Of a stretch of 32,000 nt of DNA, positions 6,001 through 31,677 are shown piece by piece. The notes under the pieces were generated by a model. That model worked only from the letters and a program-made list of their open reading frames with translations, had not been told where the DNA came from and ran no database searches. Made by a program: the position numbers and the translations under genes. Origin of the DNA: Candidatus Fokinia solitaria (GTDB taxonomy: Bacteria > Pseudomonadota > Alphaproteobacteria > Rickettsiales > Midichloriaceae); contig NZ_CP025989.1 in NCBI RefSeq assembly GCF_003072485.1, forward strand, positions 540,001-572,000. The letters are read 5' to 3'. Numbering within the stretch: the stretch's first letter is position 1; each line of letters starts with the position of its first letter.

Positions 6001-9000
6001 TGCGCAAGACATTTAGGGAAAAGTTCAGAGTAATAAAAATATTTTTCAGCAAAATCCTCCATGCTCTTCATATCGTATCTTTCGCTGATCGCTGCAAATG
6101 CAATAGTTTGCAACGGTATATACTCAGGAACGATCTCATTCGCACCTTCTAACAAATTAGATTCTTTTGCACTAACTATAAAGCGTGCATATTGCTCTTT
6201 CAAAAGCGCGACAAACATTTCTGCAATATCGGCTTGCTTCATATCTAATTTTTGCGTTACGTACTCTTTAAATTCATCGAAAATACCTTGTAAAGCTCCT
6301 AATCCAAATACTTGACTTAGCACTTGATCTTTTACTAAGAAAGCATGCATAGAAGATATATCACCAAACTGCTCAGCTGAAATATTACTTAATTTCTCGC
6401 TCAGATAATCATGAATACGTTTTACACTAGATTTAGATAATTTCTCTGGTACAAAAATTTCATTCCATTCAACACACTGCATTTCAGCAAGTAACGCTTC
6501 AATACGCTGCATTTCGTTACTATTCGCTCTGTCTTGATATTTCATAATATTACCATTTCTCAAAGAGCAAGATACGAAATTGGTCAATACTTGAGCAGCA
6601 AGCTGTTGAGAAAGTGAAATTTCTACATCCACTTCCAATAGTGGCGCCATAAACGCCTTATTGATATCACTGACATGTAAAGATACAGCATTTGAGAATA
6701 AACGCGCTGACGAATGATGTTGTATCACTGTATCAGTAAAAGCATTCTTAATAGCACTAAGATCGTTTACGATACTAGATAATTTCTCTTCTAAAATTTG
6801 AAGTGATAGCTTGCCTCCATGTGCTTCTTGCAGTGCATTGATACTTATACCTTCTCTACCTGTAGCAGCAATAGATAACTGATTAACGACAACAATGAAA
6901 AGATCTATCTTCTCTCTTGTCGTAGCATCAGAACGCGAATATGTGGAGAATATAGTATGCGCAAATTCCGAAATTACATCTTTCATTCCGAAGTGAGACG
7001 GAATCATCTTTCCTAATCTTTCTCTGAAAGACTCTGTATTAGGAAACTCCTCTGCACCTAGCTTATGCACTACATCTGCAATATTTTGCCAGAAAGCTTC
7101 TACGATAGAATTGGAATTTCTTTCGATCGCTTCTTCAAGTTTTACATCACTATCATCGCTAAAATCACTGCTATTCTTCAGAGCATTGAGAACACCATCA
7201 AAATCATGATGCCATTTACCATACGTTTTCTTCAACTCATTTCCATATTTCTCATACTCTTTACTGTTCACCATGCTTAAGTATGCCATTTTTACTATCT
7301 CACTAAATGACATATACTTTCCTGCTGCGTACGAATCCGATATCGTACGGTATTGCTTCGTAAAAGTATTCCACCAATGTTCTCTATCTAGCGTAGGCTT
7401 ATTAAACCAATTATTTCGCAAGTAGTTATCTTTGATATTTTTAAGAGTTTTAAAATTCTGCAGCTTATCATTTTCTGACAAAGTGCTATTTTCACTATCA
7501 TATTTCAACAAGTATCCTACTAAGACTTTCAACTCATTAGCTATTTGATGAGTATTTTCTATTTCTCGTACTACAACTCCTTGGTGGATCAAATCTGTAA
7601 TTTTCTTTTGTACTTCAGTTCTTATGCTAATTAAAAAGTCATTCTCAGTAATATAATCTTTACCAAAAACCTCTTTTACTATGCTAGATATCTTATCTTT
7701 ACTTTCATTCGCGAAGGATACGCTACCTCTTGCTGCAGTTTCTACCTCTCTTATGTCCAAATAACGAAATGCATCTGTCATAAATTTTAGAGCTTGGCGC
7801 ATGATTTCGCTGTAATATTTTCCTGGCAAAGCAAGTTTTTTGAGAGCTGTTGCTAAGTTTATATAATCTACAAATCTATTTTGGAAAACAGTTTTGCTTT
7901 CTTTTGACGTAACATTCAAACCAAACATTCCAGCAGTATGAATACTTAAAGCACGAAATTCTGCTGCATCTTCTACTAATAATCTGGCATTTTTCTCAAA
8001 ATTCGCCAATTCCTTATATATTTCATCTCTTGCGCCAATGAAGAAACGTTTCATTTCTGCCTCACTTAGTGAAGCTCCACCTAATGTTTTCTTCCATTCA
8101 TCTAAGGTATTATAAGTCGCACTTACTTTCGAAGTTAAGGCATTTCCCGCTAAATCTTCTATAGTGCTATCATAAATTTTACTGATATTATCCATCGCAT
8201 CGCTGATGAAATTTCGTACTCCAACATTTGTGCTGGTAGTAGATAATAGAACAGCTTCTACGATAGAAGGAGAATCTTTAGCAGGTACCGCAAAGAAGGA
8301 CGTTAAAGCTTTAGCAAAAAGCTTATCTGCTGGAGTTCTATTTTTATCGTCTTGTAAAAGAGGAAACGATGCACTATGAGATAACTGCGACGTAACGCCA
8401 AAGATTGATAAATCTGTATCTGACATCGTAGCTGACGCTCTATAGCCTGTTAAAGCACGAGGAAGCTCTTCTAAGAAAAGCACATCATTAGCTTTATCGT
8501 TTATCACTTCCATAAATTCTGCTTTCGTATTCCTTCTTCCTTGCCCCGATTCAAGTGCATTAAAAGCATCATAAGCAGATAATTGCATCAACTCTTTGTT
8601 GTATAAAAACTGATATTGCAAGGCTTCGTAAGCATCATAAAACGATAAAGACTTTATCTCTTTAAAAAGCGGATATTTTAAAAGCTCTTCCTGTGATTGG
8701 ATAAAATTCTTACCATTTACAGCATCTCTGTAAGATATGAGACTTTGAAGCATCTCTCTTTCTTTCACTAAAGCAGGGTTAAGCTCTTGCAATAAAGATT
8801 CAATTAGCTCATTAGCGCTATTCGCATATTTGCGATGCTCTTCCGTAATAGGAGATAACTTTTTCATAGTCCCCTTTATATCTTTTAGATATCTTGCTAC
8901 AAAAACGTTGCCTCGAGAAAGATTCTGAGAAAGATCTTTCCAGAATTTAGTAACTTGCTCTTCGAATTGCTGTAAATCAACATTAAAGATCGTAACAAGC

Positions 9001-16499: not shown

Positions 16500-19400
16500 C
16501 TCCAACTCAGAATTCATTACATCGCTTCCTCTTGATAGCTCTTTTCCTGTAGCGATTTCTATCAATTTACTCTTATAAAGATATCCACTGCCATTATCAT
16601 TAGGAAATTTCACCTTTCCAAAATATTTCTTCGTATCTTCGATCTCAATATTAGAAGGCACTACTGAAGTATTGTATCGTGTATATAACTGCGTTACGAC
16701 ATCATCATCTACTGAGAACAGTTGTATATTTTTTTGCTCCATTACAAATAAGAGATGTTTCACTCTACCACTGTCTTTCAGATGAGATACAAAAACATCA
16801 TACTCGGCATCACCTATAACGAGTTTTACTCGCTTATACTGCAACAGTGCAGCACTAATATCTAATGTAGTACTTTCAGTAATAATACTGTCAAGTATTT
16901 TATAGAAATCATCATGCTGTACACTAAAATCTCTGCTGCTAAAACGACTATCACCAATAATTACTGTACCTCGCGTAACATTACTCTCAAATAAATTAGA
17001 CTTAACGTATTCTTCATCGCCTACAACGACAATAGCATCTTCGATATTGAAAAGACCGTCCTTTCTGTAATACGTATTACGCGAAGAAATCTCTAATCCA
17101 AGAAATTTTTTCACACCACCTTTTACAATGCCGTTCAAATCGCCTAGCACTGCATAAGCACTGCTTGCTAAAGCCTTATCTGATACTTTTTTCACTTCTC
17201 TTCTATTGGCAACATCAGAAAATACTACATAAAAGTCCTCTTCATTATTTTCAAAAACCAAATACACATTTCTTTCGTCTTTTTCATATTCATTAAGCGA
17301 AAATTTCAATGCAAGTTGCTTATTAGAAACAGCATAACATACGACGTCTTTGATATTATGCAAAATAAAAGCACCTCCAATACCTTTTAGTATTTCTGCT
17401 ATTTCTTTACTTAATACGTGAACATTTGGTTTTCTATCCATTAGCCACTCTAAATCCATAGCAGAAAGCTGTCCATCTGCGACTTTAGCAAAGCCCATAA
17501 TAACATCATCACTAAAGTCGTCTACTTTACCAGATAATGCATTAACTTCATTGGTAAATGCTAAATTTTCAGAATATTGAACTTTAGCTCCTTTCTCTAC
17601 TTTACCATTATTAATGATATAACAATCTACATCCTGTGACTCTCTGAAAAGCATCACTGCATGCTCAACACTATCAGCATTGATAACAATTACATAAGAA
17701 TCTTTGTTATCCACAGTATTAGTATATTTGAGCACTTTATAAGCTCCTACAGTAATTCCGAATTTTTTACTGAAAACATCTACTATGAAATGATTCATAT
17801 CTTCTAAAAATTTTTCCTTTTCTATCTCACTAATCTTATCATCAAGATCGCTTTGCCTAAATTCTGAATATACCATACCGTTAATAAGGCTTATTATTGC
17901 ATCATTTGTCGCAAAAGAACGCGGTATGTTTAGCACGTGATCTGGTTCTCCGATAAATTGAACCATCTTGCTGGAAATAACATCATCTACATAATGCTGC
18001 ACTTTTCCAGCGTCATCGATATAATATAAACCTCTACCACCTTCCTCATCTGATATATGCATGATTGATTCATTTTGAGTCATTCCGCTCTCACTTCCAG
18101 AATGAGATATTACAATAATACGCACAGTACCGCTTTCGATAATAAGATGCGCAAAGCTTTCTCCCTCAAATTTTCCAAATTTGCCATTCTCCTTACTTCT
18201 GTCTACTATTTCTGATAAAATACGCTCATTGTCAGACTTTTGCACAAAAATAAGATCTTCTTGAGTATCTTGAGAAATACCGTTATCCGCAGCATCTTCA
18301 AATTCAGAAGGATTTTCATCTCCTCCTACTTCTGATGTAGTATGATTGTAATTAGACTCTTGCTCGAAAGTAGGTTTTTGCTCAGTATCTTGGAAAGTAC
18401 CGTTATTCGCAGCATCTTCAAATTTAGAAGGATTTTCATCTCCCCCTACTTCTGATGTAATATTGTAATTAGACTCTTGCTCGAAAGTAGGTTTTTGCTC
18501 AGTATCTTGGAAAGTATCGTTATTCGCAGCATTTTCAAATTCAGAAGAATTCTTATATCTTCCTACTTCTGATGTAATATTGTAATTAGACTCTTGCTCG
18601 AAAGTAGGTTTTTGCTCAGTATCTTGGAAAGTACCGTTATTCGCAGCATCTTCAAATTCAGAAGAATTCTTATATCTTCCTACTTCTGATGTAATATTGT
18701 AATTAGACTCTTGCTCGAAAGTAGGTTTTTGCTCAGTATCTTGGAAAGTACCGTTATTCGCAGCATCTTCAAATTCAGAAGAATTCTTATATCTTCCTAC
18801 TTCTGATGTAATATTGTAATTAGACTCTTCCTCAGAAATAAATTCTTCTTCAGTACCTTGGAACTCTTCCTCAGGAATAAATTTTTCTTCAGCACCTTGA
18901 GAAATACCGTTATTCGCAGCATTTTCAAATTCAGAAGAATTCTTATCTCCTCCTACTTCTGATGTAATATTGTAATTAGACTCTTGCTCGAAAGTAGGTT
19001 TTTGCTCAGTACCTTGGAACTCTTCCTCAGAAATAAATTCTTCTTCAGTACCTTGGAACTCTTCCTCAGAAATAAATTCTTCTTCAGTACCTTGAAAAAT
19101 ACCGTTATTCGCAGCATCTTCAAATTCAGAAGGATCAATACTACCAATTGATTGCGTCTCCTCTAAATCCAGGTGTCCAATAGCAAAATTTATCACTGCT
19201 CTTCTACCATCATCAGTACTCATCATGTCGTACTCTGTAGGAAGATCTTTAGATTCAACACAAAAAGAACGTAGATTGAATGTAAGTTCTACAGCGCCTA
19301 CTAACTGCACTGCATTATCATCAGCATGATATAACGTATACCCTGACGCATCTTTAGAAATTAAGAATAAATCATCAATTACATATAACTGAGTAGTAGT

Positions 19401-21050
19401 CTTCGAATGAGAAGCAGTATTCTTAATAAATACACATCGTAATTCTGCATTAAAAACTTCTATACCAGCCTTCTCACATAATTGACGATAGAAATCTCTA
19501 TAACGCTCTTCATCACCTTCCTTCCTATTACTAACCTCTCTTTCATCTTCAGTAATATAATGAATAAGCTCTTCATCACTTTGCTTTTTACTCTCAACAT
19601 CCTCTCTCCTACCAACATTCTCTCTTCTTTTATTATCAGCACTTTCATTAGTAATATCTAATTCAAATAAACTTGTAATAAAGCTCTCAGACATTAGCGA
19701 TATTTCTTCTGTTTTCGCAGTAAAGAAAGGAATTTTTGAATGAGGCGATTTAGAGGAATAACATCCATCACCACAGTGAGTACTAGCGCTCTTAAGCTCT
19801 ATAACAGGCTGACCATTATTCTCTGTAACATAATACGCAGTATAATGATCATCTTTAGTAAACATGATAATCAACTTGCTATCATTACCTACATTGATAT
19901 TTAAAGTCCAAGCAATAGCGGTATGATCACTTTGCTCTACCACTTTAACAATATAGTAATCGCTTAATTTTACAGAACTATCCTTTTTAAAATCTTCAAG
20001 TGCACTTTTTATAAATTCTCGATATTCAATATCTTGAAAATATAATTCAATTGAAGCACCTTTTCTCTTCAGCCGAGGTAATGACAATAATTGAGAAGGT
20101 TTAAAATCATGAGTAGTAAAATCTAATTTTTCATCAACAAAATACACGTCGGACAAAGAGATATTATAGCCAAAGAATTCTTGATCCTTTCCTTTTTTTA
20201 TCGCCTCCCAAAAAGCAAAATTCCACAAATTTTCTACATCATCCTTGAAACTTCCTAAAGAATCATATTCTCGATCATATGCTGTTATAACTTCATCATC
20301 TTTTATTGAAGTTGCTACTATCGTAAACTTCTCTTTATCGTTTCGAGAAAAGATTAAATACAAATCCTTCGAAATTTCTGTGCTAAGTCTAACTGCTATA
20401 AAATTAGCTTCAATACTTGAAAATATATAATGCGATACAGATTTGAGCGACTTCTTAATATCTAATTCTTTAGCAATTTCAGTAATAATATCATTTTTTG
20501 GCAGTGGCTCTTTCTGCATATTCCCTCCTTCTATCATATTTACATCTAAAGCCTCTGCTTCTACATATTTAAGCGAAACACCTTCAAAAACCATCTTAGG
20601 AAGATAAGAAGGGATTCGGCCAATATCGCCTTTTCCTCTTACTTCTAAGAGCTCCTGCTGATTAAATTCTTTTATCAATTCCGCGTATGTAGCGTCAAAA
20701 TCTTTTGCATATTTTAGCAAGAACGCCTGTTCGATCTTCTCTTCACTCGCATAGTACGGTGCAATATTCTTTTTTCCGATTTCTACTATAAAGTACCCAT
20801 GCTCATCACGAGCAATCGCGTAGTACGATTCTTTAAATCCGCTACTAGTCTTATTTTCATCTTTAGATTTGCTACTCTCATCTATATATTTCACAAACTT
20901 CACATCTTCTTCCGGAAGAGAATCCATCGTAAAATTCACCCCTCTTTCTTCATATCGCTCTTTAAGTTTCTTCAAAAGCGAATCACTAAAAGGTAATTTT
21001 CTCAAATGTTCATCACCAAAAGAAGAGTCATTCTTCGTATGCTGTGTCAT
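1..21050 (-). CDS. Giant protein of unrecognised family, with at least 7,016 codons inside the window; its C-terminus lies beyond the left edge
   Basis: The start is ATG at 21050-21048 (reverse complement), with an in-frame upstream TGA at 21101-21099. Hand translation begins MTQHTKNDSSFGDEHLR. Minus-strand codons occupy plus positions 3n..3n+2. I checked this frame by hand and found it stop-free at 3-59, 5040-5081, 10500-10559, 15000-15041, 17571-17639, 18000-18191, 18600-18719, 19008-19046, 19302-19349, 19740-19928 and 21000-21050. Any in-frame stop inside the window would create a complete ORF of 60 aa or more starting at 21050. The track would list such an ORF, and it does not. The only minus-strand ORFs listed in this span (18953..19147, 19460..19648) are in a different frame. 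Confidence 0.88.
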   Translation of the reverse strand, partial: MTQHTKNDSSFGDEHLRKLPFSDSLLKKLKERYEERGVNFTMDSLPEEDVKFVKYIDESSKSKDENKTSSGFKESYYAIARDEHGYFIVEIGKKNIAPYYASEEKIEQAFLLKYAKDFDATYAELIKEFNQQELLEVRGKGDIGRIPSYLPKMVFEGVSLKYVEAEALDVNMIEGGNMQKEPLPKNDIITEIAKELDIKKSLKSVSHYIFSSIEANFIAVRLSTEISKDLYLIFSRNDKEKFTIVATSIKDDEVITAYDREYDSLGSFKDDVENLWNFAFWEAIKKGKDQEFFGYNISLSDVYFVDEKLDFTTHDFKPSQLLSLPRLKRKGASIELYFQDIEYREFIKSALEDFKKDSSVKLSDYYIVKVVEQSDHTAIAWTLNINVGNDSKLIIMFTKDDHYTAYYVTENNGQPVIELKSASTHCGDGCYSSKSPHSKIPFFTAKTEEISLMSESFITSLFELDITNESADNKRRENVGRREDVESKKQSDEELIHYITEDEREVSNRKEGDEERYRDFYRQLCEKAGIEVFNAELRCVFIKNTASHSKTTTQLYVIDDLFLISKDASGYTLYHADDNAVQLVGAVELTFNLRSFCVESKDLPTEYDMMSTDDGRRAVINFAIGHLDLEETQSIGSIDPSEFEDAANNGIFQGTEEEFISEEEFQGTEEEFISEEEFQGTEQKPTFEQESNYNITSEVGGDKNSSEFENAANNGISQGAEEKFIPEEEFQGTEEEFISEEESNYNITSEVGRYKNSSEFEDAANNGTFQDTEQKPTFEQESNYNITSEVGRYKNSSEFEDAANNGTFQDTEQKPTFEQESNYNITSEVGRYKNSSEFENAANNDTFQDTEQKPTFEQESNYNITSEVGGDENPSKFEDAANNGTFQDTEQKPTFEQESNYNHTTSEVGGDENPSEFEDAADNGISQDTQEDLIFVQKSDNERILSEIVDRSKENGKFGKFEGESFAHLIIESGTVRIIVISHSGSESGMTQNESIMHISDEEGGRGLYYIDDAGKVQHYVDDVISSKMVQFIGEPDHVLNIPRSFATNDAIISLINGMVYSEFRQSDLDDKISEIEKEKFLEDMNHFIVDVFSKKFGITVGAYKVLKYTNTVDNKDSYVIVINADSVEHAVMLFRESQDVDCYIINNGKVEKGAKVQYSENLAFTNEVNALSGKVDDFSDDVIMGFAKVADGQLSAMDLEWLMDRKPNVHVLSKEIAEILKGIGGAFILHNIKDVVCYAVSNKQLALKFSLNEYEKDERNVYLVFENNEEDFYVVFSDVANRREVKKVSDKALASSAYAVLGDLNGIVKGGVKKFLGLEISSRNTYYRKDGLFNIEDAIVVVGDEEYVKSNLFESNVTRGTVIIGDSRFSSRDFSVQHDDFYKILDSIITESTTLDISAALLQYKRVKLVIGDAEYDVFVSHLKDSGRVKHLLFVMEQKNIQLFSVDDDVVTQLYTRYNTSVVPSNIEIEDTKKYFGKVKFPNDNGSGYLYKSKLIEIATGKELSRGSDVMNSELEQYIMESEEFSAEMKSARASLFDALSSAEVTFGNLIKKEKAKEGASEFEIVLLAQLLQFLKAALDIEMYVYHKVKLASSELEKASKANLAMIQTVSDSFSEFYSTLNKGISFKGTLSGSVYRENAALFAKLFDKITSFSQYDEYLNKRIALEKKFSTLQDSSFVSSDAVNLYDVSEESLKELIALFGKNRKDASFVQSTSLKVNLEFALNGYFTGSANIENERNSVALRDLVNVLEEQSEQKILDLETLLKTISRTALNGIVIVERSGKKEMLSSTFPRKALIGEILQWAADAETFCKAIAGYTTSKISSVRQEVLKIVEKFTMEVYEFKRLEEFFKEAEFPSYKGIQAIQDLSHSSYEKDEQLRKKVDSLLKAGESELKAKCQFIIEVGQRINHLANSNIFVKDEQCISWNDATSDITFDGYFVKVKEEYLSIMIKKLQDIIITWSKKSDEFVKMKENIDEQVQYIEAKKIFEDLQEQFTTTEEEFFNKIKNHDKRHGIKYTVSHSKEAAIGNSFSDVVRTHFYGYLANVDNKVKSLLEGNWWKANKESKELYNKLIALLHKTNVDDIIGLHDEFDELVYTLQPKAIAIFDKAIDAEKSKRIKATEKLEALFIECKDEQSRCSKEDINAALGDLVTEEGVMSFSATGYITRSMIDVIQEFFTNEESEKFHRIKKIISGISNKKEIGEKLWQHVLRYPVEAEKFNIEMSNLEKAAINGTMWQSVQDALLNEKLHVEQFGDFISIEEEIFEYRKDAIQVNALLIKEAYELIKQDESLSKGVEDQHDADRIAKTLADERTSLIAQYNLVEREKELLQSIKKWKSYNMDVLGDIELRVDNVEQIHRAQMIYGSVAAADLGLSVINNFNVCMSALGEVRDRVVEDFKKAIEDTQKELISQRDKVESLRLLAVIPYSSSELHEKEKEIAALSKLLENTQEQFDIKLKEAEASLSSLMNDVFFANITKDALLITDERLKNYLEEQKATAHKVEDYESKKRELGDKIAVLKEFEETLEEVLSRSDALSIVMDKKARWYSILEERVQSGDDTLRDILQEDSLNSQEQADTLLEKIEAHVRLLNGQLGASEQSQSDNEGGVLSSILKPSSIGGSILHRKSLEELHKSISSYKAGMKDKLYAPIEVVIEKSRGELEVAQYASYIIELQDSGKLAQELDLFKKTLIKDFSATSMIAMWFQQAKGRVKQVREKFIADNKLKSAQELRQISCFSNNESLGCDSKIADVYELSEKYYKNLDIFGFATTELHEIGKELYALLRYIDDGRDVAEDTKGFNLREVISTNLRITSEHVRNHKVHIKVLEAEKSAISKWDAVFKRKVEAIERKLHKFSSEAKIEDLSSKIALSRDALDKATTAIDVKLKNLYIKVEIREWRENVVKIYAEFQKAITDISMKELFKSLKFQNFNFAPLTESNSVKLALEPFENYVSKMKEFSEYEAFETKEALKEMEALKVEMNSFISTQENQMKIAIGNIKRNYDAVEAALILEANSIRSALLASLEKYDQDVLLMERGDIIELVNKEQNKIASAFNSNKERFTALLGKIKDEIEEINYKRYVNEVAYNEDMSDSIKELITAYSNILKAKIDDLSIGSLIDNLEHSYTKLSHLQLKNEARVLLNEYQKKKAKLILDGVRSGEKNIYTTIHNEYVLVLEKVQNIQAQFEKNLKSVGNMLPDSALYQKFDVNDAIISLAREDVLISEQIAVELKNELLEQEQNLPLQLSHNLIFAELRQQILDEGRRCSGNDRESFADYIRQKCISKTIFNFSQFKKYDNGAVCDVSDVKFDSSELALYDYTGYRLHYAKEMQKVVNSFIQRKDNIDSVLSNLFDKSNADIITPAALKDLLLKKEINESEAYEVIIGIVDKAAERYSVFDITFVLSMAQRVLYDRLSRSVEDINKLIQNYSLLFTSHPSYEKEKAIFDESVQKLENAWKDSSYSKDGLILRKEVESLYSYLKEGDSASSHVWPYKSDQEICERLLLALRDKEETSDAIIQYLGKLGLSENKNLVVKEALTNWFSSDRKQVALDKLFLVLWASIDSGDRYREYIIQAEMDLVERYVKKVYSGNSAVVELVKDKAFKAIKQSQSATSKKEASKKEIQYKYDSISPEEKWMCVKISEKVTSLQNSYKAWKGNSVKVDDTLWNDPLFSTIASNVSRAALLTDLNFADKLAASKAILSDTDVANMRSEFSALEDKLIHTLPEKVMKMIKEKEQLEKILQIMKHVIQFTTAEDSSSVKAFINQVDLYISGGVATISDIYHGIVDRYKESELMILVNKSNRATIERVIKEFEQVLQAKKSDIINEAVPFLKAAVADDGSILNSTSTVLKEISNDKTNPSFNMRFEAIRDALTTDKSVVDLGKLAEGKSIINSYLDSISNEIFSFQERSKLLNSYISVLEDRQENAKILLNTLQSSIDINAVNNNWNEAAEFLQNLKQIIANGRKSNSEGLLEDLRKFVDSTYVAKDNQAGATELLKGVRELIADGEQYSESRLLKELEALVTIFNVDLQQFEEQVTKFWKDLSQNLSRGNVFVARYLKDIKGTMKKLSPITEEHRKYANSANELIESLLQELNPALVKEREMLQSLISYRDAVNGKNFIQSQEELLKYPLFKEIKSLSFYDAYEALQYQFLYNKELMQLSAYDAFNALESGQGRRNTKAEFMEVINDKANDVLFLEELPRALTGYRASATMSDTDLSIFGVTSQLSHSASFPLLQDDKNRTPADKLFAKALTSFFAVPAKDSPSIVEAVLLSTTSTNVGVRNFISDAMDNISKIYDSTIEDLAGNALTSKVSATYNTLDEWKKTLGGASLSEAEMKRFFIGARDEIYKELANFEKNARLLVEDAAEFRALSIHTAGMFGLNVTSKESKTVFQNRFVDYINLATALKKLALPGKYYSEIMRQALKFMTDAFRYLDIREVETAARGSVSFANESKDKISSIVKEVFGKDYITENDFLISIRTEVQKKITDLIHQGVVVREIENTHQIANELKVLVGYLLKYDSENSTLSENDKLQNFKTLKNIKDNYLRNNWFNKPTLDREHWWNTFTKQYRTISDSYAAGKYMSFSEIVKMAYLSMVNSKEYEKYGNELKKTYGKWHHDFDGVLNALKNSSDFSDDSDVKLEEAIERNSNSIVEAFWQNIADVVHKLGAEEFPNTESFRERLGKMIPSHFGMKDVISEFAHTIFSTYSRSDATTREKIDLFIVVVNQLSIAATGREGISINALQEAHGGKLSLQILEEKLSSIVNDLSAIKNAFTDTVIQHHSSARLFSNAVSLHVSDINKAFMAPLLEVDVEISLSQQLAAQVLTNFVSCSLRNGNIMKYQDRANSNEMQRIEALLAEMQCVEWNEIFVPEKLSKSSVKRIHDYLSEKLSNISAEQFGDISSMHAFLVKDQVLSQVFGLGALQGIFDEFKEYVTQKLDMKQADIAEMFVALLKEQYARFIVSAKESNLLEGANEIVPEYIPLQTIAFAAISERYDMKSMEDFAEKYFYYSELFPKCLAHTEASFISSSWKSENEVAVRNYCNNLLRNEGKNPDDYTEVVSLFSSAIYRIREDIGVDALIGGVYNAQIIQDIKEYVFRDGVLDFEKYALGTVENNFVRSFAAKLKKSVAIPKVEKEKIEKEVEVITKRRDSLSKSVKDFEKVQQSLGGIYATVSEYSEAKSELNNYKKHFDENTAEILKNLRTVIHLGVVRANKDIATLFKELGLGDFSIKDSSSFKAQVQKRFNKETQSVTEEVDYSLGTLTAKEPEEFKAAITSLRQKVTEQQWNILGSAIFNSYQSYKAPSAEKMIGALKSLSTYELCDIADRIGISARNQVMPDIYSFLRAFAEKIVANGEDFLEDFVLTAEEFDKIKDALEKAQVRGDDVIRNPNIDVNILDIDDEAFLKSLGDTQYRLADLLSIVAKEDNDAIEWLNDNLNNKEKEKLIRAVVASYEATDSKIGDTIGVIGRISNYLSSYFIDPSEENAIHRAALQKRLSNIQYKSEESEKNMKRDISRFIETQVEKLFSLVVEMAKHLDGDNDMVNAQDLFSLVDIMEKSLIAHEAISSDFSKEIHDAADSLKKLETVSFKVKTIWSYLRDDEPVSLMSTIYSEMKNYLHQSASAERMFIESNNKALDIKEMFVRLLEQFDVIPQRFLQLDIEQRDKSIAEYIAEREEENSDIAGTTVLRQVFSFLKLFNADSRLVSAIHKIIEDNEPSYNPKMMIGDAMIEELFSVQQRAEVIDEAIAVYDKWYSENNGNIITAAEAAENSSIIEDLDKQIAERQEKLKVLNEQLSEEIVTQNINNFNTTHINIRAEELIYGNLKDVLADKDFANILSDAKMIASYPHFIKFLDNVLLYKTNKKENSINYIKKMEDALSAFLKVCKMIASLSKYEIFNVDILKFDDIDSVAKLIAKLDLSNIQLISDEGGKTDKALQSLQSALISKLQQIKDIVSDGAAELRTLKTASIPLSEFAATDATIFAFLKNENSMAFGYSAFLSCPVEGTHGFANIAERQYPFSIELQKSSNSYNVEYLLADMNTKMSEEKAKECGIDKIPDFLKLVCEKTFPRDKDRDDKAQHGADNEYFKRLQRTEDESSAKLSVDIKNLQNLSGQLVNYIKKELQDGNIKSYEDVQSLVAKDEKYSPSIQQLISKINGDCEYATISCRTLDVNGIIANIDSAPLLAFNEHARAISIANALNDHLMKLCRAHEKDFSDGIEQELLQRVSVIERAFKVLIEQEKWRLSSEMKLFEMQKADPSNHETIDKYRSLLNELLQHRLSEKSEMEAIKYYEQSHIVQRRAEIEYLEKELKSIDKVNDVTFSSKIDDILSSFRTEYQHMQDAREYYYSYHTKQMRDTVVSQQKEFTELLSQKLAPLSLNADSSLGGSDSVTGVDSELREKLKEDVETAKTDRYNYIQLSNFAKKNGIGMHSLEMIQAVSWVYSYYNVDYRAYRTSSGDWTAKQKEDMISKSNANMNKFIAGRNLASGELDISMQKIRQLVTSMYNDDISYFRKEMEKAYALVAKSLTEYVTSYKFELKAEHSDLRTSYYMNVLKQSAAAEASRLEKFYLTDIMKVLEGHKKSLVEVERYNDVKDKYELIAKNQQKLQDGLLKPISNYESTVNYSAVREYDSAIAQCGSMLRKLENLEQKASQLSKKEETIREEIGQNKGWSGKKNEYIAFSREIESLGNTLPSGNSCEKVVPFNDERVMNYSKVLQFILQENARKIESKKQTIHTLLSNKVREMQTYLAHREHMEALDNVERLLEKSTKALNEKILKITPLIINNAIDIAVYESYVAAARDDVKNSAEYAVMKELCHNRYSDDCDEVDNRVSNFGASIIGDLRSVAMVVGSEYAEALKKLSTETELVAQRIGKLTMLEEKDIRSAEDELDSSINSINEISYGRAVTNSNNLELHKILLLELQSKFAVAKSKAIEQINNNFVMRREYVSLSKYVIFDAQNKEFRQDENVKNDIWLIVRDGFRKSMEFNVQSCLSDVRHFTEQRITMPSKYKMREKDISGMEQ
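16500..18263 (-). other. Giant protein aa ~930-1517: second block of beta-hairpin-like modules (head, part 2)
   Basis: Three stretches were translated by hand. ENGKFGKFEGESFAHLIIESGTVRIIVISHSGSESGMTQNESIM lies at 18060-18191, MHISDEEGGRGLYYIDDAGKV at 18000-18062 and SQDVDCYIINNGKVEKGAKVQYS at 17571-17639. They share the motif of an aromatic strand followed by an Asp/Asn-Gly turn seen in head part 1. Confidence 0.45.
18264..19135 (-). repeat. In-frame nested tandem-repeat array inside the giant CDS: five 117-bp units, one 120-bp variant and three 39-bp units, encoding acidic 39-aa and 13-aa repeats
   Basis: The anchor motif ag(t/c)a(t/c)ctt recurs at plus positions 18264, 18384, 18501, 18618, 18735, 18852, 18891, 19008, 19047 and 19086. 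The spacings are 120, 117, 117, 117, 117, 39, 117, 39 and 39 bp. The 39-aa unit, translated from 18600-18719, is EQESNYNITSEVGRYKNSSEFEDAANNGTFQDTEQKPTF. The 13-aa unit, from 19008-19046, is EEEFISEEEFQGT. Units 18501-18617 and 18618-18734 differ at only 2 of 117 nt. Confidence 0.92.
19136..21050 (-). other. Giant protein aa ~1-638: hydrophilic N-terminus with no Sec signal or TM segment, followed by beta-strand-like modules (head, part 1)
   Basis: Two stretches were translated by hand. DHTAIAWTLNINVGNDSKLIIMFTKDDHYTAYYVTENNGQPVI lies at 19800-19928 and ASGYTLYHADDNAVQL at 19302-19349. Both show alternating hydrophobic strands followed by Asp/Asn/Gly turns. The first 17 residues are charged or polar. 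Confidence 0.45.
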
Positions 21051-21354
21051 TGCTTTTTGCAAATGTGTATCAAAAGTATCAAGAGGATAGTACCATAATC
21101 ACCGATCTAACACATTACATTTTTTCACATTTTTCTTTACTAAAGTGCAGGTAGTGTTAATTTTAGAATAAATCGCAACTATCTAATGCATTATTTCGCT
21201 ATATAATTCGACTTCATACTTTATTCGAGCCATTAAGAAGTAGTATTTATATCACTCTCTTATCTTTCAAAAATCTCTCTATTTCAAACAAAGCAAGTTA
21301 AAAAGCATTCTGATTATGAACATCTTTTCGCATCCATATTCTTAGTATATATCA

Positions 21355-23985
21355 TTAATACGCAGCACTACCATATATGAAGAAGCGTTGCTCTAAGTCT
21401 CCAGTTTGCGGATTAATAGGAATTGCATAATCAAAGGAGATTGTACCTAAAAACGGTAACTTTATGCTTAATCCTACACCGATACCACCTCTTACTGCTT
21501 CAAAGTTATAATATCCATTATATGGATTTAATCCTTGTACAAAGTAAGGATTCTTTAGACTTTCTATGCACTCAGGAGACAATTGTGCTGCGTTACACGT
21601 CTGTGCTTCTTCTGCTGCTTTTTTTAATGCCAATGGCCCTCCTCTACATGGCTGTTCTGCTGCTTTTTCTTTTGCTTTTTTAAATGTCGATAGTTCCTTT
21701 CCACATCCTTGCACTTCTTCTCTCATTTGCGCTTCATCTGGCACTTTTCCATTATATGGATAATAGCCCATTTTCTCCCAAGTTTTCTTTGGTATGTCTA
21801 TATCCCAACAAGTACCAAAATCCACAAATCCTCTCACATCGATATCCAATTCTTTCGCTATTTTCAGAGGATATATCAACTCTACCGAGGTAGTGAAGTA
21901 CTTTTTAGCACCTAGGGAATCAGAATATAACTTATCTCTAGGACCAATACCATTTGGCTGGAAGCCGCGTACTTTAGGCGCACCAAGCATAAATCCATTC
22001 ACAACACTTACTTTATTATCTCCAAAGCCTTCAATGAGCCCTCCATTTAGTTTTGTATAAATGAGAAGACTTCTATCAGCAGTTGGTAAGTAGAAATTAG
22101 CACTGACATCGTACTTCTGATAGTATCCATTTCCACCTAATCCAGCGAATTCCGGGAAAAGACCTATAGAATAGCCATTTGGCAATTTTCCTCTATAAAA
22201 AACCTTGTTATACGTTATAGATGATGTTACGGCTGATATCACATACGGAGACTGTTCTGCTCTGATATACGCTGATACGTCACTTTTTTTATTATTTATA
22301 TCATCACCTCTTACAGTATATCCTAAGCCTACGTCACAATTTTTCGTCATAGGGAAAATAAATTTTGTGAACAGCCCCTTTCTCACTATATCGTACTGTG
22401 CCTGTTTAGTATTAGCATTCTCAGTATAATACGGAGTGGTATTATAAAAAGCTCCAAATTGCCACTTTAAATCACGCTCAAGAAAATACGGATCGGTATA
22501 TGTAAAGTCAGTAGCAAAAGATGGCGCTACGTTCGCCGTATTATTCATCATACCAGGCGCTGGTCCTGCTGAAAATCTTACATCAACTATCTTTCCAGTA
22601 CCGAGGAAATTTCTTTCCACAAGTTCAAGTAATCCAGAAAATTTAGATTTACCTGTAGAATCCATGCCACCATAAGCTACTTGCAACTGCACTTTTGCAG
22701 TACTTTTTTCTTTCACCGTAAGCTTTAGATCTGCTCTATCATTTTGCTGTGGCACAACACTAACATTGATATCATCGAATATATCAAGTGCTCTGATATT
22801 AGAAAGAGATGCATTAACGTATTCCATCTTAAAAGGATCTCCTTCCATTATTTCTAACTCTTTTCTCACGACAAAATCTTTAGTCTTTGAATTGCCATCT
22901 ATCACGATATTGTCCACGTAAACATAGCTGCTTTCTGTGATATTGAAACGCACATCTACTTCATAGCCATCTTTAGTTATTTCGTACGATACCTTACTAA
23001 AGGCATATCCTGCTTCATGCATCTTCTCTTTCAGCGCTTCTTGTAATCCTTTTATCTTTCCGATGGAAACTGGATCTCCTCTTCTGATATTAATCTTTTT
23101 TATCACATCTGAAAAATTCACTTTTTTCTCTAGATTGACAGTCATATTTCTTATGATATATCTCGCTCCTTCATCTACTACATATGTCACAAGTGCACCT
23201 TTTTTCTCTGGTAGAATTGCAACTTCGCCATTACTTACCTCGCAATCTATATATCCTGCGTCTTCATAAAACTCCTTCAGTCTCTGTATATCTGAAACCA
23301 TTGTACTGTGCTTCACTATATGACTGCTACCAAGCGCACGATACCAAGTCTTCTCTTTCATCGATAACACATCTTTCAATTTAGCATCTGAAAATGCTTT
23401 ATTTTCAACAAAATTTATCGCAACTACAGAAGGCGCATTACCTTCGTATATGTAGTATATTACATTCACTCTCACATCATCAAGCATCACAAATTTCGGA
23501 GTAATTGTAGCTTCAAAATACCCTTTTTCTCTGAACACTTGCTTTAATACTTGTGAATCCATCCAGCTTTTTTGATAACCATACAGCGTACCAGGCTTCA
23601 TCTTCACAAAATTCTGCAATGTAGAGTCACTGATATTTTTATTCCCGCGAAAGAACACAGCATTAACTATGGGCACTTCTTTTACCTTGATGGATATTGA
23701 GTGCTCTTTTTCATCAAATTCGGCTCTTACTTCTTTGAAGAAGCCAGTACCATACAACTTCTTAATAGAGTTATTTATTAGCTGTTCCGTAATTTCCTTA
23801 CGCTTTGGTAATGCAAAGTAATGTATAATAGCGCTCGAAGATAGCATCTTATTACCTGCAACAGTCAGCTTTACGTCTTCAGTGAAAATCACAGTACCTC
23901 CTGTTGCAGCATCGGCATCATAACAAACGCCAAGAAAAAGAAATAACAGAAGCAAAAGAGTAAATCTTTTAAAGTATCTCATCAA
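21355..23985 (-). CDS. bamA: Outer membrane protein assembly factor BamA (Omp85 family)
   Basis: The ORF is 876 aa. It has a signal peptide (MMRYFKRFTLLLLLFLFLGVCYDADA), a POTRA-like N-terminal half, the conserved barrel loop motif KVRGF and a C-terminal beta-barrel ending RFFIYGSAAY. The first codon of the track ORF is TTG (23985-23983). The adjacent ATG at 23982-23980 is the more likely start. Confidence 0.9.
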   Translation of the reverse strand: MMRYFKRFTLLLLLFLFLGVCYDADAATGGTVIFTEDVKLTVAGNKMLSSSAIIHYFALPKRKEITEQLINNSIKKLYGTGFFKEVRAEFDEKEHSISIKVKEVPIVNAVFFRGNKNISDSTLQNFVKMKPGTLYGYQKSWMDSQVLKQVFREKGYFEATITPKFVMLDDVRVNVIYYIYEGNAPSVVAINFVENKAFSDAKLKDVLSMKEKTWYRALGSSHIVKHSTMVSDIQRLKEFYEDAGYIDCEVSNGEVAILPEKKGALVTYVVDEGARYIIRNMTVNLEKKVNFSDVIKKINIRRGDPVSIGKIKGLQEALKEKMHEAGYAFSKVSYEITKDGYEVDVRFNITESSYVYVDNIVIDGNSKTKDFVVRKELEIMEGDPFKMEYVNASLSNIRALDIFDDINVSVVPQQNDRADLKLTVKEKSTAKVQLQVAYGGMDSTGKSKFSGLLELVERNFLGTGKIVDVRFSAGPAPGMMNNTANVAPSFATDFTYTDPYFLERDLKWQFGAFYNTTPYYTENANTKQAQYDIVRKGLFTKFIFPMTKNCDVGLGYTVRGDDINNKKSDVSAYIRAEQSPYVISAVTSSITYNKVFYRGKLPNGYSIGLFPEFAGLGGNGYYQKYDVSANFYLPTADRSLLIYTKLNGGLIEGFGDNKVSVVNGFMLGAPKVRGFQPNGIGPRDKLYSDSLGAKKYFTTSVELIYPLKIAKELDIDVRGFVDFGTCWDIDIPKKTWEKMGYYPYNGKVPDEAQMREEVQGCGKELSTFKKAKEKAAEQPCRGGPLALKKAAEEAQTCNAAQLSPECIESLKNPYFVQGLNPYNGYYNFEAVRGGIGVGLSIKLPFLGTISFDYAIPINPQTGDLEQRFFIYGSAAY

Positions 23986-24291
23986 AAATATACCAATACC
24001 TAGATTTTCCAGTCATCGGTAGAGGATATACATTTTTACAAAATAATCAAATCCAAGACTCCATTCGATACCTTAATATCGATATGAAAAATAACATTTC
24101 GGCAAATTACTTAAAAATTTAATGCTAAAAATCAAAACTTATATGAAACGCATACGCGAAAAGTATCGCAAATATCATGCGATGATATAATAAAATAAAG
24201 AGAAAATAACGCTTAGGTATCCTTGCGCGAAAACGATACAGATAAATAAAAGTATACTAAGAAGATAAGAACATGAAGGAGAAGATGTTCA

Positions 24292-25296
24292 TTATTTCAA
24301 ATTCTTCACATCGCTTACTGATACCGATATAAGGATTGCTATAATAAACACAAAGCCGAGGAAGAATAGAATTTTTTGGACATTTTGCGGGATTCTCTTC
24401 TTAAATAGTAAGAGGGTGATAAAATCTAAGAGACATATTACAATATTTCCTCCATCTAAGCCTGGAATAGGAAGTAAATTAAAGACACCTAGATTAATAG
24501 AAAGCACCGCCATGAAGAATAGTAGCGCTGGAAAGCCTTTCTGTAAGATAGAATGAACTAAATTCGCAACGCCAATTGGCCCTACAATTTCTGCCTTCTC
24601 ATCCTTGTTGAATGCAGTTTTTAGTAACATAGGTATACCTGAGAATACTTGCTTGCACATTATAACTGTATCATTAAGACCGCTTTCGATAGAGCTGAGT
24701 AAACTTCTTTTCACGGTAATATTTACTCCAAGTTCTGTCAAATGATTGACTGTTGTAGAAAGTACCACATTATTATCTCCTCTCTTTACCAAGATTACGA
24801 GATCCTGATTATCTTTGCCGTAGAATGCGCTAATCTCAGACATACTTTTTCCATTCACTGTTAATATCACGTCACCTTTTATAATGCCAACTTTCTCAGC
24901 TACAGATTCGTGTTGCACTCCTAAAACAATTCCTTCTTCGTAGTAATTCGATATGTATATCGAAGTAAATACCAAGATTACGCAGGAAAGCAGAAAATTT
25001 GCTAACGGCCCACCTATGCATATAAAAGCTCTTATAAGAGGAGATTTGTTTTCGTATGAATGTGGATCACTCAAACCGTCTTGCATTTTCACATACCCTC
25101 CTAATGGAAAAAGAGCTATTTGCCATAATACTCCTGCAGAATCTTTGTATCCGAACAATTTACGGCCAAATCCGAAAGATACAACATTTACTTTTACTCC
25201 AGATATTTTCGCGGCAACAAAGTGTCCTAATTCGTGCAACATCACAATAGGAAACAGGAAAAGCAGCAATTCTACAAACATCCACAGTGCTTCCAT
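24292..25296 (-). CDS. rseP: RIP site-2 zinc metalloprotease RseP (M50 family, single PDZ domain)
   Basis: The ORF is 334 aa. It carries the HELGH zinc motif in the first TM helix, a PDZ-like segment (GIIKGDVILTVNGKS) and the NLLPIPGLDGG motif. It sits directly upstream of bamA, which is the canonical arrangement. Confidence 0.85.
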   Translation of the reverse strand: MEALWMFVELLLFLFPIVMLHELGHFVAAKISGVKVNVVSFGFGRKLFGYKDSAGVLWQIALFPLGGYVKMQDGLSDPHSYENKSPLIRAFICIGGPLANFLLSCVILVFTSIYISNYYEEGIVLGVQHESVAEKVGIIKGDVILTVNGKSMSEISAFYGKDNQDLVILVKRGDNNVVLSTTVNHLTELGVNITVKRSLLSSIESGLNDTVIMCKQVFSGIPMLLKTAFNKDEKAEIVGPIGVANLVHSILQKGFPALLFFMAVLSINLGVFNLLPIPGLDGGNIVICLLDFITLLLFKKRIPQNVQKILFFLGFVFIIAILISVSVSDVKNLK

Positions 25297-25568: not shown

Positions 25569-26702
25569 CTATTCGATAATAGTTTGAAATATAGATAAAT
25601 TACTATCACTATTTATAGAATTATCATTCTGATAAATTACACTACTGACATCACTTTTCTCAAAATTCTTAGGAGTAAAACCTAAGTCAGAAGGAAGATT
25701 ATGAAAACGTGCGGATACTTCTTCGTAATCTATGCTAAATGAAGTACTATCGTAAATAGTAAACATAATGGACGATATAAAACCATCTACTTTTGCAATA
25801 ATCGTGCAATTTTCAGTACCATCTAATATCTTAAAACTACGAGATTCTACGCATTCTATAGATAATTTATCTCCACGCTTGCAAACGTCAGGAGAGTTTA
25901 TATTAGAAAAGGTATATACCGAACATTGCGACTTTATAATATCTGCAGTTGGTACATAGCAAAATTCCTCCGTAATACTTCTCTTCATCACAAGCATATT
26001 GGTCTTCTCTACATCAACGTTATATGTTACAGAAAGCAACTTTAGAACCATAGTATTTACTATATTTACACAAATAGCGTTATCAAAATGCTTACACAAA
26101 TAACCTCCAATACTATTATGGATATCAGTATATTTTTTAAGTCCTTCTGCTGCCATATTATAACCTATATGCGAAATGCCACATCCAACTATTTTCTCTA
26201 AAATAGACACTTCTGTAGCATGTACACTTTTCTTAGCAACGCAGGAAACGGCGCCATGAATACTTGGAATTGCTTCTCTGAGAAAATGCCATTTTTGAAA
26301 AATTTCAAAATCTATTAAAAAAGACAAATCGATTGCAAATTTCGAAACAGTACTCGCGACATCTACTTTTCCTACATAAGTCACTCCTACCATCCCACCA
26401 GACGATGATCCAATGACTGTACTTAGTACACTATAGGTAGCTTTTGCGACAGCGCCTATCAAGAAATGTTTCTTTGCAATTTCCGCAGGTGTATAGATAT
26501 TCTTGTACGCTAGTACACACTCTGTCATAGTAGTAGCTAATCCGACAGCAGCACCTTCTACAAAAGCAGCTGGTAATGAGATTAGAGAGTGTAAATGCAA
26601 GGAAGTTATCATTGGATGCTCAAGATTCCAAGAGTATGCGATAAATCCTACATGTAGAGTTTTAAGAAAATAAGCTGCTGCAGCATTATGCCGTCTATGC
26701 AT
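25569..26702 (-). CDS. Hypothetical protein with hydrophobic, Gly-rich N-terminal segments and a C-terminal half containing most of its 10 cysteines
   Basis: This is an intact 377-aa ORF with an ATG start, on the same strand as its neighbours. I recognised no family. Hydrophobic stretches include LISLPAAFVEGAAVGLATTMTECVLAY and LIGAVAKATYSVLSTVIGSSSGGMVGV. Confidence 0.6.
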   Translation of the reverse strand: MHRRHNAAAAYFLKTLHVGFIAYSWNLEHPMITSLHLHSLISLPAAFVEGAAVGLATTMTECVLAYKNIYTPAEIAKKHFLIGAVAKATYSVLSTVIGSSSGGMVGVTYVGKVDVASTVSKFAIDLSFLIDFEIFQKWHFLREAIPSIHGAVSCVAKKSVHATEVSILEKIVGCGISHIGYNMAAEGLKKYTDIHNSIGGYLCKHFDNAICVNIVNTMVLKLLSVTYNVDVEKTNMLVMKRSITEEFCYVPTADIIKSQCSVYTFSNINSPDVCKRGDKLSIECVESRSFKILDGTENCTIIAKVDGFISSIMFTIYDSTSFSIDYEEVSARFHNLPSDLGFTPKNFEKSDVSSVIYQNDNSINSDSNLSIFQTIIE

Positions 26703-27654: not shown

Positions 27655-28021
27655 ACTTACTTCTTCCAAGCTTTCTCTCCGCTTCCTACTTTGAAGCTTT
27701 TCGCGCTGTAACTTAGTATCTTAAAAAAAACGTCAGCGTTTCTAGTATGACTTTGATATCTAATATGTCTTCTTGAGGGATATATTCCGTATTTCTTTTC
27801 GGTAGTAAATTTTCTAAAAAATGCTACTTACATCGCATAAAATCATATTCGTAAAGTTCTTCCTAAATGAGAATATGTATTATTTATTAAATCGATAAAG
27901 ATATAATAGCAATGTTATTGCAATGTCAATTTTAAACATATAGAATAAAACTATATTAAAAAATAAGACGTTTTGAATTATTTTTTATCTCATTGTTTTT
28001 TTAACATTTTTTTCTACTGTC

Positions 28022-28378
28022 ATGAAACATATAAAAAAATTATCGAAATACTTATTCTTCATAGTAATGCTAATTTTTCCTGCGATTGCGTTTGCTGATA
28101 GTACTACTCCAGATGTAACCCCTCTTGAGCAGGTATTATGCAACATTTTTGAAATAATAAGTGGTCCGATAGTAACTGCCGTCATTACAGTTACCATTAT
28201 CTCGACTGGTCTTGGCGGACTATTTGGCAAAGTATCATGGACAACAGTTGTAGTAATATTCATAGCAGGAGCTGTTATAGTAGGAGCACCACAAATGGCT
28301 GCCGTATTTACGAGTGTCGATAGCAGCACCAGTTCATCACTACAGCCATTCACATGTGGCAGTTCAACATCAAGTTAG
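28022..28378 (+). CDS. virB2: TrbC/VirB2-family type IV secretion pilin-like protein
   Basis: The ORF is 118 aa. It has a signal peptide (MKHIKKLSKYLFFIVMLIFPAIAFA|DS) and two hydrophobic helices separated by a short loop containing Gly, Lys and Trp (GPIVTAVITVTIISTGLGGLFGKVSWTTVVVIFIAGAVIVGAPQMA). This is the typical VirB2/TrbC topology. The C-terminal tail is Ser/Thr-rich. The assignment rests on pattern only, with no search run. Confidence 0.55.
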   Translation: MKHIKKLSKYLFFIVMLIFPAIAFADSTTPDVTPLEQVLCNIFEIISGPIVTAVITVTIISTGLGGLFGKVSWTTVVVIFIAGAVIVGAPQMAAVFTSVDSSTSSSLQPFTCGSSTSS

Positions 28379-30411: not shown

Positions 30412-31677
30412 ATGTCAAGCCAAAAAATAAGCTGTCAGTTTTGTGGTCGAAGCGGCAGTGTGCTGAAGAAGGTCATTATAGGAAAAGAAGCAATGATATG
30501 CGGCAGCTGCGTAGAACTTTGTAATCTTATTTTGAAGGGAGATAGAGGAAATACTTATAATTCTCCAGAAGCGCTAGAATGCCCTCTTCCAAAGGATATA
30601 ACAGAAAAATTAGACGTACATATAGTAGGTCAACAGAATGCTAAGCGTATTCTTGCCGTAGCGGTGTATAATCACTTCTGCAGAATCAAAAATCGCGAAA
30701 ACTCTCCGCATGATGAACAAGAGGAAAATATACGAAAGATACGAGAAGAATTAAAAGATGTTGAAGTCGCTAAAAGTAATATATTATTAATAGGTCCTTC
30801 TGGATGCGGTAAAACTCTTATTGCCGAAACTTTAGCAAAAATCTTCTCACTTCCATTTGCAATAGCAGATGCAACTACATTAACAGAAACAGGTTATGTC
30901 GGAGAAGACGTAGAAAATGTCATCATGAGATTACTTGTTAACTGCGATTATAACGTAGAAGCAGCACAAAAAGGGATAGTATATATAGATGAGATAGATA
31001 AATTAGCAAAGAAGAAGCATGGCGGTTCTACTGCACGTGATATATCTGGAGAAGGAGTGCAGCAAGGACTTTTAAAGTTGATAGAAGGTACTGTTGTTAA
31101 TGTCAGCAGACATAGAGGAAGCGAGCCGATACAGGTCAATACTAAGAATATATTATTTGTCGTAGGCGGTGCATTTGAAGGTCTTGATAAGATTATCAGC
31201 TCTCGCGTAATAGACTCTGGCATAGGATTTTTATCAACTAGCGCCAAAAATAAGCAGAATCACGTTGAATTATCTGCGATTTTAAGAAAAGTAGAGCATG
31301 AAGATCTTTTAGATTATGGATTAATCCCGGAATTCATAGGTAGATTACCTGTAATTGTCACTCTTGATGCTTTAACTGAAGACGATCTTGTATCTATACT
31401 TGTATCTCCTAGAAATGCATTGATCAAACAGTACAAAAAAGTTCTTCTACAGAACAATATAGAGTTAGAATTTGAGCACGATGCACTTATAGAGATAGCG
31501 CGACTTAGTATAAGAAAAAAGACTGGCGCACGTGGATTACGCTCCATTTTAGAGCATTTATTGATAGAATGCATGTTTGAAGCGCCGCATAATCAATCTT
31601 ACAGAAAGATTATAATTACGAAAAATAACGTATTGGACTTTTTTTCTGAATCTAGAGTAGCTAACTTCGTAGCGTAA
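30412..31677 (+). CDS. clpX: ATP-dependent Clp protease ATP-binding subunit ClpX
   Basis: The ORF is 421 aa. It has an N-terminal C4 zinc finger (CQFCGRSG...CGSC), Walker A (GPSGCGKT), the pore-1 loop GYVGEDV, Walker B (IVYIDEIDK) and an IGF ClpP-docking loop (GIGF). Confidence 0.95.

Follow-up and report, generated by a model that had tools for sequence, protein, structure and literature searches.

A probable species-specific expansion of a short acidic linker in the giant orphan protein Fsol_00512 of Candidatus Fokinia solitaria

The subject of this analysis is a tandem repeat array inside the giant gene Fsol_00512 of Candidatus Fokinia solitaria, which was studied in a stretch of 32,000 nucleotides (nt) of contig NZ_CP025989.1 (positions 540,001 to 572,000; hereafter the window, whose numbering is used throughout). 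Fsol_00512 lies on the minus strand at 3-21050, with codons 1-7016 of its 7,555 codons within the window and the C-terminal 539 amino acids (aa) encoded beyond the window start. The stop-free minus-strand frame extends from 21098 to 3 (7,032 codons); the ATG at 21050 is the start of AWD33306.1 (P0121), a protein of 7,555 aa annotated as 'hypothetical protein', and the translation of the window is 100% identical to it. With 22.7 kb the gene takes up 2.7% of the 837-kb genome (837,348 bp); according to the genome paper (PMC5905368), no smaller genome had been reported in Rickettsiales by then. The array itself, located at 18264-19130 on the minus strand, comprises 867 nt and encodes in frame 289 strongly acidic residues, i.e., residues 641-929 of Fsol_00512. 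A first-pass annotation made from the sequence alone had placed the array at 18264-19135 within a giant open reading frame (ORF); the reading frame and the existence of the array were confirmed by Tandem Repeats Finder and by a manual parse, the latter of which moves the end of the array from 19135 to 19130. When Tandem Repeats Finder was applied to the whole window, the array was the single repeat region found. Neither the giant gene nor its repeats are mentioned in the genome paper (PMC5905368), in the species description or in other searchable papers.

The giant protein has hardly any relatives. A full HMMER search with residues 941-2140 against 1.84 billion representative proteins matched three proteins, namely Fsol_00512 itself, the ortholog from F. 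crypta (P0122; 7,997 aa, 40% identity) and a third one, which was rejected as spurious with an E-value of 9e-5 and a match scattered over 15 short stretches. As far as sequence comparison can tell, the family is detectable only in the genus Fokinia, whose members live as endosymbionts in Paramecium and belong to the Midichloriaceae (Rickettsiales). A scan of GTDB genomes with the N-terminus of the giant protein returned no match, and searches of Pfam, NCBIfam and PDB sequences gave nothing significant for the giant protein, its C-terminus, the array or the profiles of the two modules described below. A word-index protein search with aa 1-1500 and 4517-7016 was also without a match, but this result carries little weight as the protein's own database entry was missed as well. 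One record of the F. crypta ortholog carries the annotation 'synaptonemal complex protein 1', the others 'hypothetical protein'. The first ~1,500 residues of Fsol_00512 make up a string of small alpha/beta modules, among which paralogs can be recognized: aa 195-258 resemble aa 1229-1281, and one N-terminal module occurs once in F. solitaria and three times in F. crypta. In residues 1500-7555, the hydrophobic periodicity peaks at 100 degrees with 1.75-1.8 times the shuffled level, which indicates amphipathic alpha-helices over these ~6,000 residues. Two further duplications were seen in the F. crypta giant protein, one of an N-terminal region (crypta aa 22-526 and 673-1097) and the other a perfect 28-aa tandem duplication in the helical part (aa 5622-5677; KYEKHHSIFGDNVFYKSFDKLYNFNSDT x 2).

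The unit boundaries of the array were parsed by hand on the coding (minus) strand, from the N- to the C-terminus, which yielded one leading partial unit, six long units (L; 117 or 120 nt) and three short units (S; 39 nt). The array opens with a partial long-unit tail (SEFEDAANNGIFQGT; 19086-19130) that BLAST can still align to the F. crypta linker, followed by two S units identical in DNA (EEEFISEEEFQGT; 19047-19085 and 19008-19046), an older variant of the long unit (…GGDKNS…ISQGA; 18891-19007) and a short-unit variant, S' (EEKFIPEEEFQGT; 18852-18890), with two mismatches to S. Then follow a hybrid unit, in which an S-type head of 27 nt is joined to an L body of 90 nt (18735-18851), two central long units of the GRYKNS type (18618-18734, EQKPTFEQESNYNITSEVGRYKNSSEFEDAANNGTFQDT; and 18501-18617), a long-unit variant (GGDENPSK; 18384-18500) that is 7 nt off the central unit and, lastly, a degenerate terminal unit of 120 nt or 40 aa (NYNHTTSEVG…ISQDT; 18264-18383). 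The successive unit spacings of 39, 39, 117, 39, 117, 117, 117, 117 and 120 nt are in accordance with the first-pass annotation, which had described all spacings except that of one 120-bp variant as multiples of 39 bp and the frame as preserved; the boundary it had drawn at the FQ(G/D)TE motif shared by the 39-aa and the 13-aa units was found as well. Tandem Repeats Finder, one of the checks it had proposed, recovered both periods, namely 117 nt at 18264-18863 (5.1 copies, 94% matches, score 987) and 39 nt at 18824-18899 (1.9 copies) and at 19006-19094 (2.3 copies, 100% matches), in addition to a higher-order period of 156 nt at 18707-19058. Since all unit lengths are multiples of three, the 22.7-kb frame survives, and changes in the array alter the length of the protein without acting as an on/off switch; phase variation was rejected for the same reason. 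No credible ORFs were found in alternative frames of the array, and Rfam gave no match in the whole window.

The two unit types are related to each other. S matches the first 27 and the last 12 nt of L (29/39 nt identical, codon-shuffle p < 0.0002), so that S equals L minus its inner 78 nt or, conversely, L equals S with a 78-nt insertion, and the breakpoint of this length difference coincides with the junction in the hybrid unit at 18735-18851. The hybrid, with its S head and L body, demonstrates that the unit types have recombined in register, as the first-pass annotation had suspected. Its notion of nesting, by which the 117-nt unit would itself be built from three 39-nt repeats, did not hold: the identity of the 117-nt unit at an offset of 39 nt is 0.26 (codon-shuffle p = 0.94), i.e., a 39-nt sub-period is lacking, and 117 = 3 x 39 is therefore a relation of lengths. 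The sole real sub-repeat is found within S (EEEF-IS / EEEF-QGT, 9/12 nt identical). With up to three mismatches allowed, the S unit has three matches in the window, all of them within the array, where shuffled sequences lead one to expect none.

Copy identity is lowest at the edges of the array and peaks in its center. GGD(K/E)N is characteristic of the outer L units, GRYKNS of three nearly identical central units; the central L units at 18618 and 18501 have all but 2 of their 117 nt in common, as had been stated beforehand, and the last 90 nt of the hybrid unit (18735) are identical to those of the neighboring L unit (18618). Given that the three central units are nearly identical, the central variant was the last to be amplified. 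A G-to-A change at unit position 84 (18534 and 18924 region), which replaces Asp by Asn, is common to the non-adjacent units 18891 and 18501 and suggests either conversion or recurrent mutation.

The longest exact direct repeat in the array spans 179 nt of its central units and thus exceeds short-read k-mers, for which reason we considered that the copy number or order of the units might be wrong through collapse or expansion during assembly. Such a failure can be seen in F. crypta, where a short-read contig (L082; Logan, SRR19308774) matches the finished genome without a single difference along 14,459 nt and stops 40 nt into that species' own array. The F. solitaria assembly, however, is a hybrid of PacBio Sequel and Illumina reads (PMC5905368), and PacBio reads easily span 867 nt. 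Moreover, private variants in most units anchor their order, and the 22.7-kb frame stays open across the array. An assembly artefact is accordingly given very little credence; gross misassembly is unlikely, and an error of one central copy is possible.

Comparison with the sister species F. crypta revealed how the site looks without the array. The F. crypta locus (L081; CP110343.1) shows the same gene order as F. solitaria, and the giant proteins of both species can be aligned collinearly from end to end with 31-46% identity, whereas the neighboring proteins are 74-93% identical, except for a 377-aa protein at 32%. Judging by these identities, the giant protein is kept as an open frame yet evolves fast, at roughly twice the rate of its neighbors. 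In the BLAST alignment, F. solitaria residues 365-659 align with F. crypta residues 1161-1436 and thereby reach into the leading partial unit; the alignment resumes at residue 940 (crypta 1437) or, in a second comparison, with a block that starts at residue 955 (crypta 1449). It follows from these blocks that residues 660-939 of Fsol_00512 are without an F. crypta counterpart. The linker in which they lie is bounded by two conserved modules identified by jackhmmer, one on its N-terminal side (aa 516-585, encoded at 19296-19505 on the minus strand; crypta 1292-1358, E 8e-37) and one on its C-terminal side (aa 944-1020, 17991-18221, minus strand; crypta 1449-1513, E 2e-36), and its length is ~45 aa in F. 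crypta as compared to ~335 aa in F. solitaria. Because the array fills a gap in a collinear alignment, the ancestral state was a linker of ~45 aa between the two conserved modules. The linker sequence 'DIDSETFDTNSKTSNANSNSGSEEEL' of F. crypta aligns with 'SIDPSEFE---DAANNGIFQGTEEEF' of F. solitaria, and the end of the last unit together with the residues that follow it ('SEFEDAADNGISQDT-QEDL') repeats the same motif as the ancestral linker end. The array does not differ from its flanks in G+C content; on these grounds, and in view of the homology of the first unit to the F. crypta linker, horizontal acquisition was rejected. The expansion in F. solitaria is species-specific, and the first-pass proposal that it is recent is borne out by the ortholog, which has no array at this site, and by the three GRYKNS copies, which are the most alike.

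F. crypta in turn possesses an array of its own in another linker of the giant protein (L081:14419-14840). It has a period of 174 nt (2.5 copies, 93% matches) and a sub-repeat of 27 nt that occurs ten times, and Ser, Thr, Asn and Gly are abundant in it. In both species a linker of the same protein family has thus grown into nearly identical in-frame repeats, but the F. crypta array differs in its position, in being non-acidic and in its 174-nt period, and its sequence is unrelated to that of the F. solitaria array. The linkers of the giant protein are generally prone to repeats, which lie outside the conserved core.

Considering the anatomy of the array and the comparison between the two species, it is probable that a short acidic linker between two small folded modules, located in the N-terminal, modular part of Fsol_00512, was expanded in frame into the tandem array and that this expansion is species-specific. 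We propose that a motif of the type SEFED..NNG..Q(G/D)T-(E/Q)E(E/D)(F/L) stood at the end of the ancestral linker, and that a 117-nt segment bounded by this motif was duplicated via replication slippage or unequal recombination, either of which would account for the array. The 39-nt short unit would then have arisen from a long unit by loss of the inner 78 nt. Subsequently, in-register recombination between long and short units would have taken place at the ends they have in common (…TTCCAAG[G/A]TACT | GA[A/G]… and …GAG.AAGAGT…), and in the last step the central GRYKNS variant would have been amplified. Head-to-tail units of 39, 117 and 120 nt, all of them multiples of three that preserve the frame, central copies with 0-2 differences, an exact repeat of 179 nt and a hybrid unit are features that the array shares with coding variable-number tandem repeats. 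It adds one more case to a familiar class of features and is probably an ordinary product of slippage or recombination. It shows the birth of coding repeats with the linker motif, the short unit derived by deletion, the hybrid and the amplified variant still readable, and F. crypta supplies the 'before' state.

The L units carry 14 unique substitutions, 11 of them nonsynonymous and three synonymous, where 80% nonsynonymous changes are expected under neutrality (p = 0.75), which weakly suggests that there is no selection on the exact residues. Some points weigh against the linker expansion as read here. The neutrality test, with its 14 events, is low-powered; recency is deduced from a single interspecies comparison and from the identity within the array; and a structure model hints that the long units could form a structured beta repeat, a minor rival that is weighed below. 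As to the strain-to-strain variation in copy number predicted by the first-pass annotation, the genomes on record amount to one per Fokinia species. JGI metagenome scans with a profile of the F. solitaria and F. crypta proteins and with an exact 29-nt repeat string were without a match, and so were contig look-ups for the exact ClpX, BamA, RseP and RpiB proteins of F. solitaria.

With respect to its composition, the array contains 20.4% Glu, 11% Asn, 9.7% Ser, 9% Thr, 8% Phe and 5.2% Asp, which results in a net charge of -60 over 289 aa and an isoelectric point of 4.05. The mean hydropathy of 0.345, as compared to a boundary of 0.488, places it within the Uversky charge-hydropathy disorder zone, and the chain is probably disordered as far as composition is a guide. 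Low hydropathy combined with high charge, conserved modules on each side and poor conservation in the ortholog are all in line with a disordered acidic linker. Between its modules, Fsol_00512 would thereby have gained about 280 acidic, low-hydropathy residues as a flexible, negatively charged spacer, the length of which, rather than the sequence, may be tolerated or used by the protein. A role of the array in host binding is speculative.

Single-sequence AlphaFold predictions gave pLDDT values of 33.5 and 37.7 in two runs. The model of the array region (mean pLDDT 37.7) contains periodic beta-hairpins in the long units at a pLDDT of about 50, with strand pairs in each long unit and local peaks near 50-55, and the long unit shows alternating hydrophobic and polar stretches (NYNITSEV, TFQDT, PTFEQ). 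The long units could thus be stacked hairpins of a beta-rich repeat that lengthens a fibrous surface protein as a rigid stalk, in the manner of the tandem domains of giant adhesins, which would suit the fine fibrils seen around the bacterium in electron micrographs (PMC4701390). Nevertheless, the model is below usable confidence, and the very low mean hydropathy and very high net charge speak for a flexible chain rather than a folded one. In addition, the interleaved 13-aa EEEF units would interrupt a regular solenoid, and an adhesin-type Pfam domain is lacking. On balance, a stalk of this kind appears unlikely, and the disordered spacer is preferred.

The tandem repeat proteins (TRPs) of Ehrlichia are small to medium-sized, repeat-dominated substrates of type I secretion in Anaplasmataceae. 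Like the repeats of TRP32, TRP47 and TRP120, the units of the F. solitaria array are strongly acidic Ser/Glu/Asp tandem repeats, nearly identical in DNA and found in an obligate intracellular member of Rickettsiales, and the first-pass annotation had drawn this architectural parallel. By analogy, the acidic repeats would be the host-exposed functional part of a secreted protein that binds host proteins or DNA in a multivalent manner. The acidic composition of the array, with its high content of Glu, Ser, Thr and Asn and its many S/T-x-x-D/E sites, would be compatible with such an effector, and so would the occurrence of the bacterium naked in the host cytoplasm (PMC4701390). Moreover, the fast evolution of the giant protein, with 31-46% identity as opposed to 74-93% for the neighboring proteins, is typical of host-interaction proteins, and a gene for a VirB2-type pilin of a type IV secretion system (T4SS) is located nearby. 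Contrarily, the repeats account for 289 of 7,555 residues, i.e., for 3.8% of the protein and not for its bulk, the ortholog of the sister species manages without the array, so that a conserved function cannot reside there, and the variation between copies looks neutral. Similarity to Pfam families, including those of Ehrlichia repeats, or to PDB chains was not detected, and an alignment to unverified TRP repeat sequences was no better than alignments to shuffles, in agreement with the caution of the first-pass annotation, which had claimed no sequence homology. F. solitaria is, furthermore, a ciliate symbiont of the Midichloriaceae and not a member of the Anaplasmataceae. Inspection of the units by eye, which is not a formal test, disclosed no LC3-interaction-type motifs.

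The export features that an effector might display were not found in Fsol_00512 either. The residues encoded within the window contain no hydrophobic segment and no N-terminus resembling a signal peptide, the GGxGxD motif of RTX proteins is absent from the giant proteins of both Fokinia species, and a basic C-terminal tail as in T4SS substrates was not found; the last 60 aa of the protein are acidic and have been conserved in the two species. The TRP parallel was not supported at the level of architecture, and we regard a TRP-like effector as improbable in comparison with a linker expansion.

Closer mechanistic analogues of the array are provided by Rickettsia rOmpA (Sca0) and Anaplasma marginale Msp1a, in which nearly identical in-frame units vary by unequal recombination. 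In rOmpA, moreover, units of two related types, slightly unequal in length, are interleaved. Both belong to the outer-membrane or autotransporter proteins; the route by which they are exported is known, and strains are documented to differ in their number of copies, whereas no autotransporter, signal-peptide or other export feature is recognizable in Fsol_00512; with Pfam, no autotransporter match was obtained on its C-terminal 539 aa. Some surface or fibrous proteins, among them type I-secreted RTX adhesins, are likewise encoded by giant bacterial genes of more than 5,000 codons. Fsol_00512 resembles these giant adhesins in its extreme length, its internal modularity and its repeat-prone regions, and its gene adjoins the envelope-biogenesis genes rseP-bamA. 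It differs from giant RTX and BAP adhesins in that immunoglobulin-like, cadherin-like and RTX repeats were not found by Pfam or motif search, in that about 6,000 of its residues are amphipathic alpha-helix and in that its family is restricted to a single genus.

Directly upstream of the giant gene and in the same orientation lies bamA (21355-23985, minus strand, NCBIfam), and no terminator-like site was found between the two by a promoter/terminator scan. The BamA protein is 100% identical to the one recorded for F. solitaria and 75% identical to F. crypta BamA. Further upstream and likewise co-oriented is rseP (24292-25296, minus strand, NCBIfam), followed by the gene of the 377-aa protein (25569-26702, minus strand), which is without a Pfam or NCBIfam match and, given its 32% identity to the syntenic F. 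crypta counterpart, appears to be a second fast-evolving gene of the window. In two other bacterial contigs retrieved via BamA homologs (L083 and L084; 8800-17000), rseP-bamA is followed by skp and fabZ, and in L084 additionally by lpxD, lpxA, lpxI and lpxB. In both Fokinia species, which lack LPS (lipopolysaccharide) synthesis, the slot after rseP-bamA is taken by the co-oriented giant gene (window 21050-25296; L081 8759-22538).

In electron micrographs, F. solitaria is seen naked within the cytoplasm of its host; a narrow rim of fine fibrils, free of ribosomes, encircles the bacterium, which in some cases also has a fibrillar tail (PMC4701390). Its genome has lost LPS synthesis, and flagella, pili or adhesins were not found in it (PMC5905368). 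A genus-specific, mostly amphipathic-helical giant protein, encoded in the slot that skp-lpxD-fabZ-lpxA occupy in relatives, invites the guess of a surface or coat role in a bacterium that has lost LPS: Fsol_00512 might be a building block of the fibrillar rim and the 'tail', a proteinaceous coat that replaces the lost LPS surface. We consider this improbable. If it were true, the acidic array would be a charged, hydrated brush or a host-contact region whose length varies between symbiont lines. Independently of this, the giant orphan gene is of more interest than the array and deserves attention itself, since a fast-evolving gene at the former site of the LPS cluster is a prime candidate for the host-symbiont interface. 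The array, for its part, would be convenient for typing Fokinia lines by its length.

The remainder of the upstream region comprises housekeeping genes, among them rpiB, brnQ and a short-chain reductase gene. ClpX (30412-31677, plus strand) is 93% identical to F. crypta ClpX; otherwise it reached only 51-52% identity, to proteins of Bdellovibrionota and others, in a non-exhaustive scan of GTDB representatives that had neither Fokinia genome among its matches. This low identity outside the genus agrees with reports that the sequences of the lineage evolve very fast. The TrbC/VirB2-type pilin gene mentioned above is located at 28022-28378 on the plus strand (Pfam E 2e-16), and a 122-aa antisense ORF at 27985-28353 is probably spurious. 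The pilin gene and brnQ share 9 nt at their 3' ends, and the same overlap is present in F. crypta.

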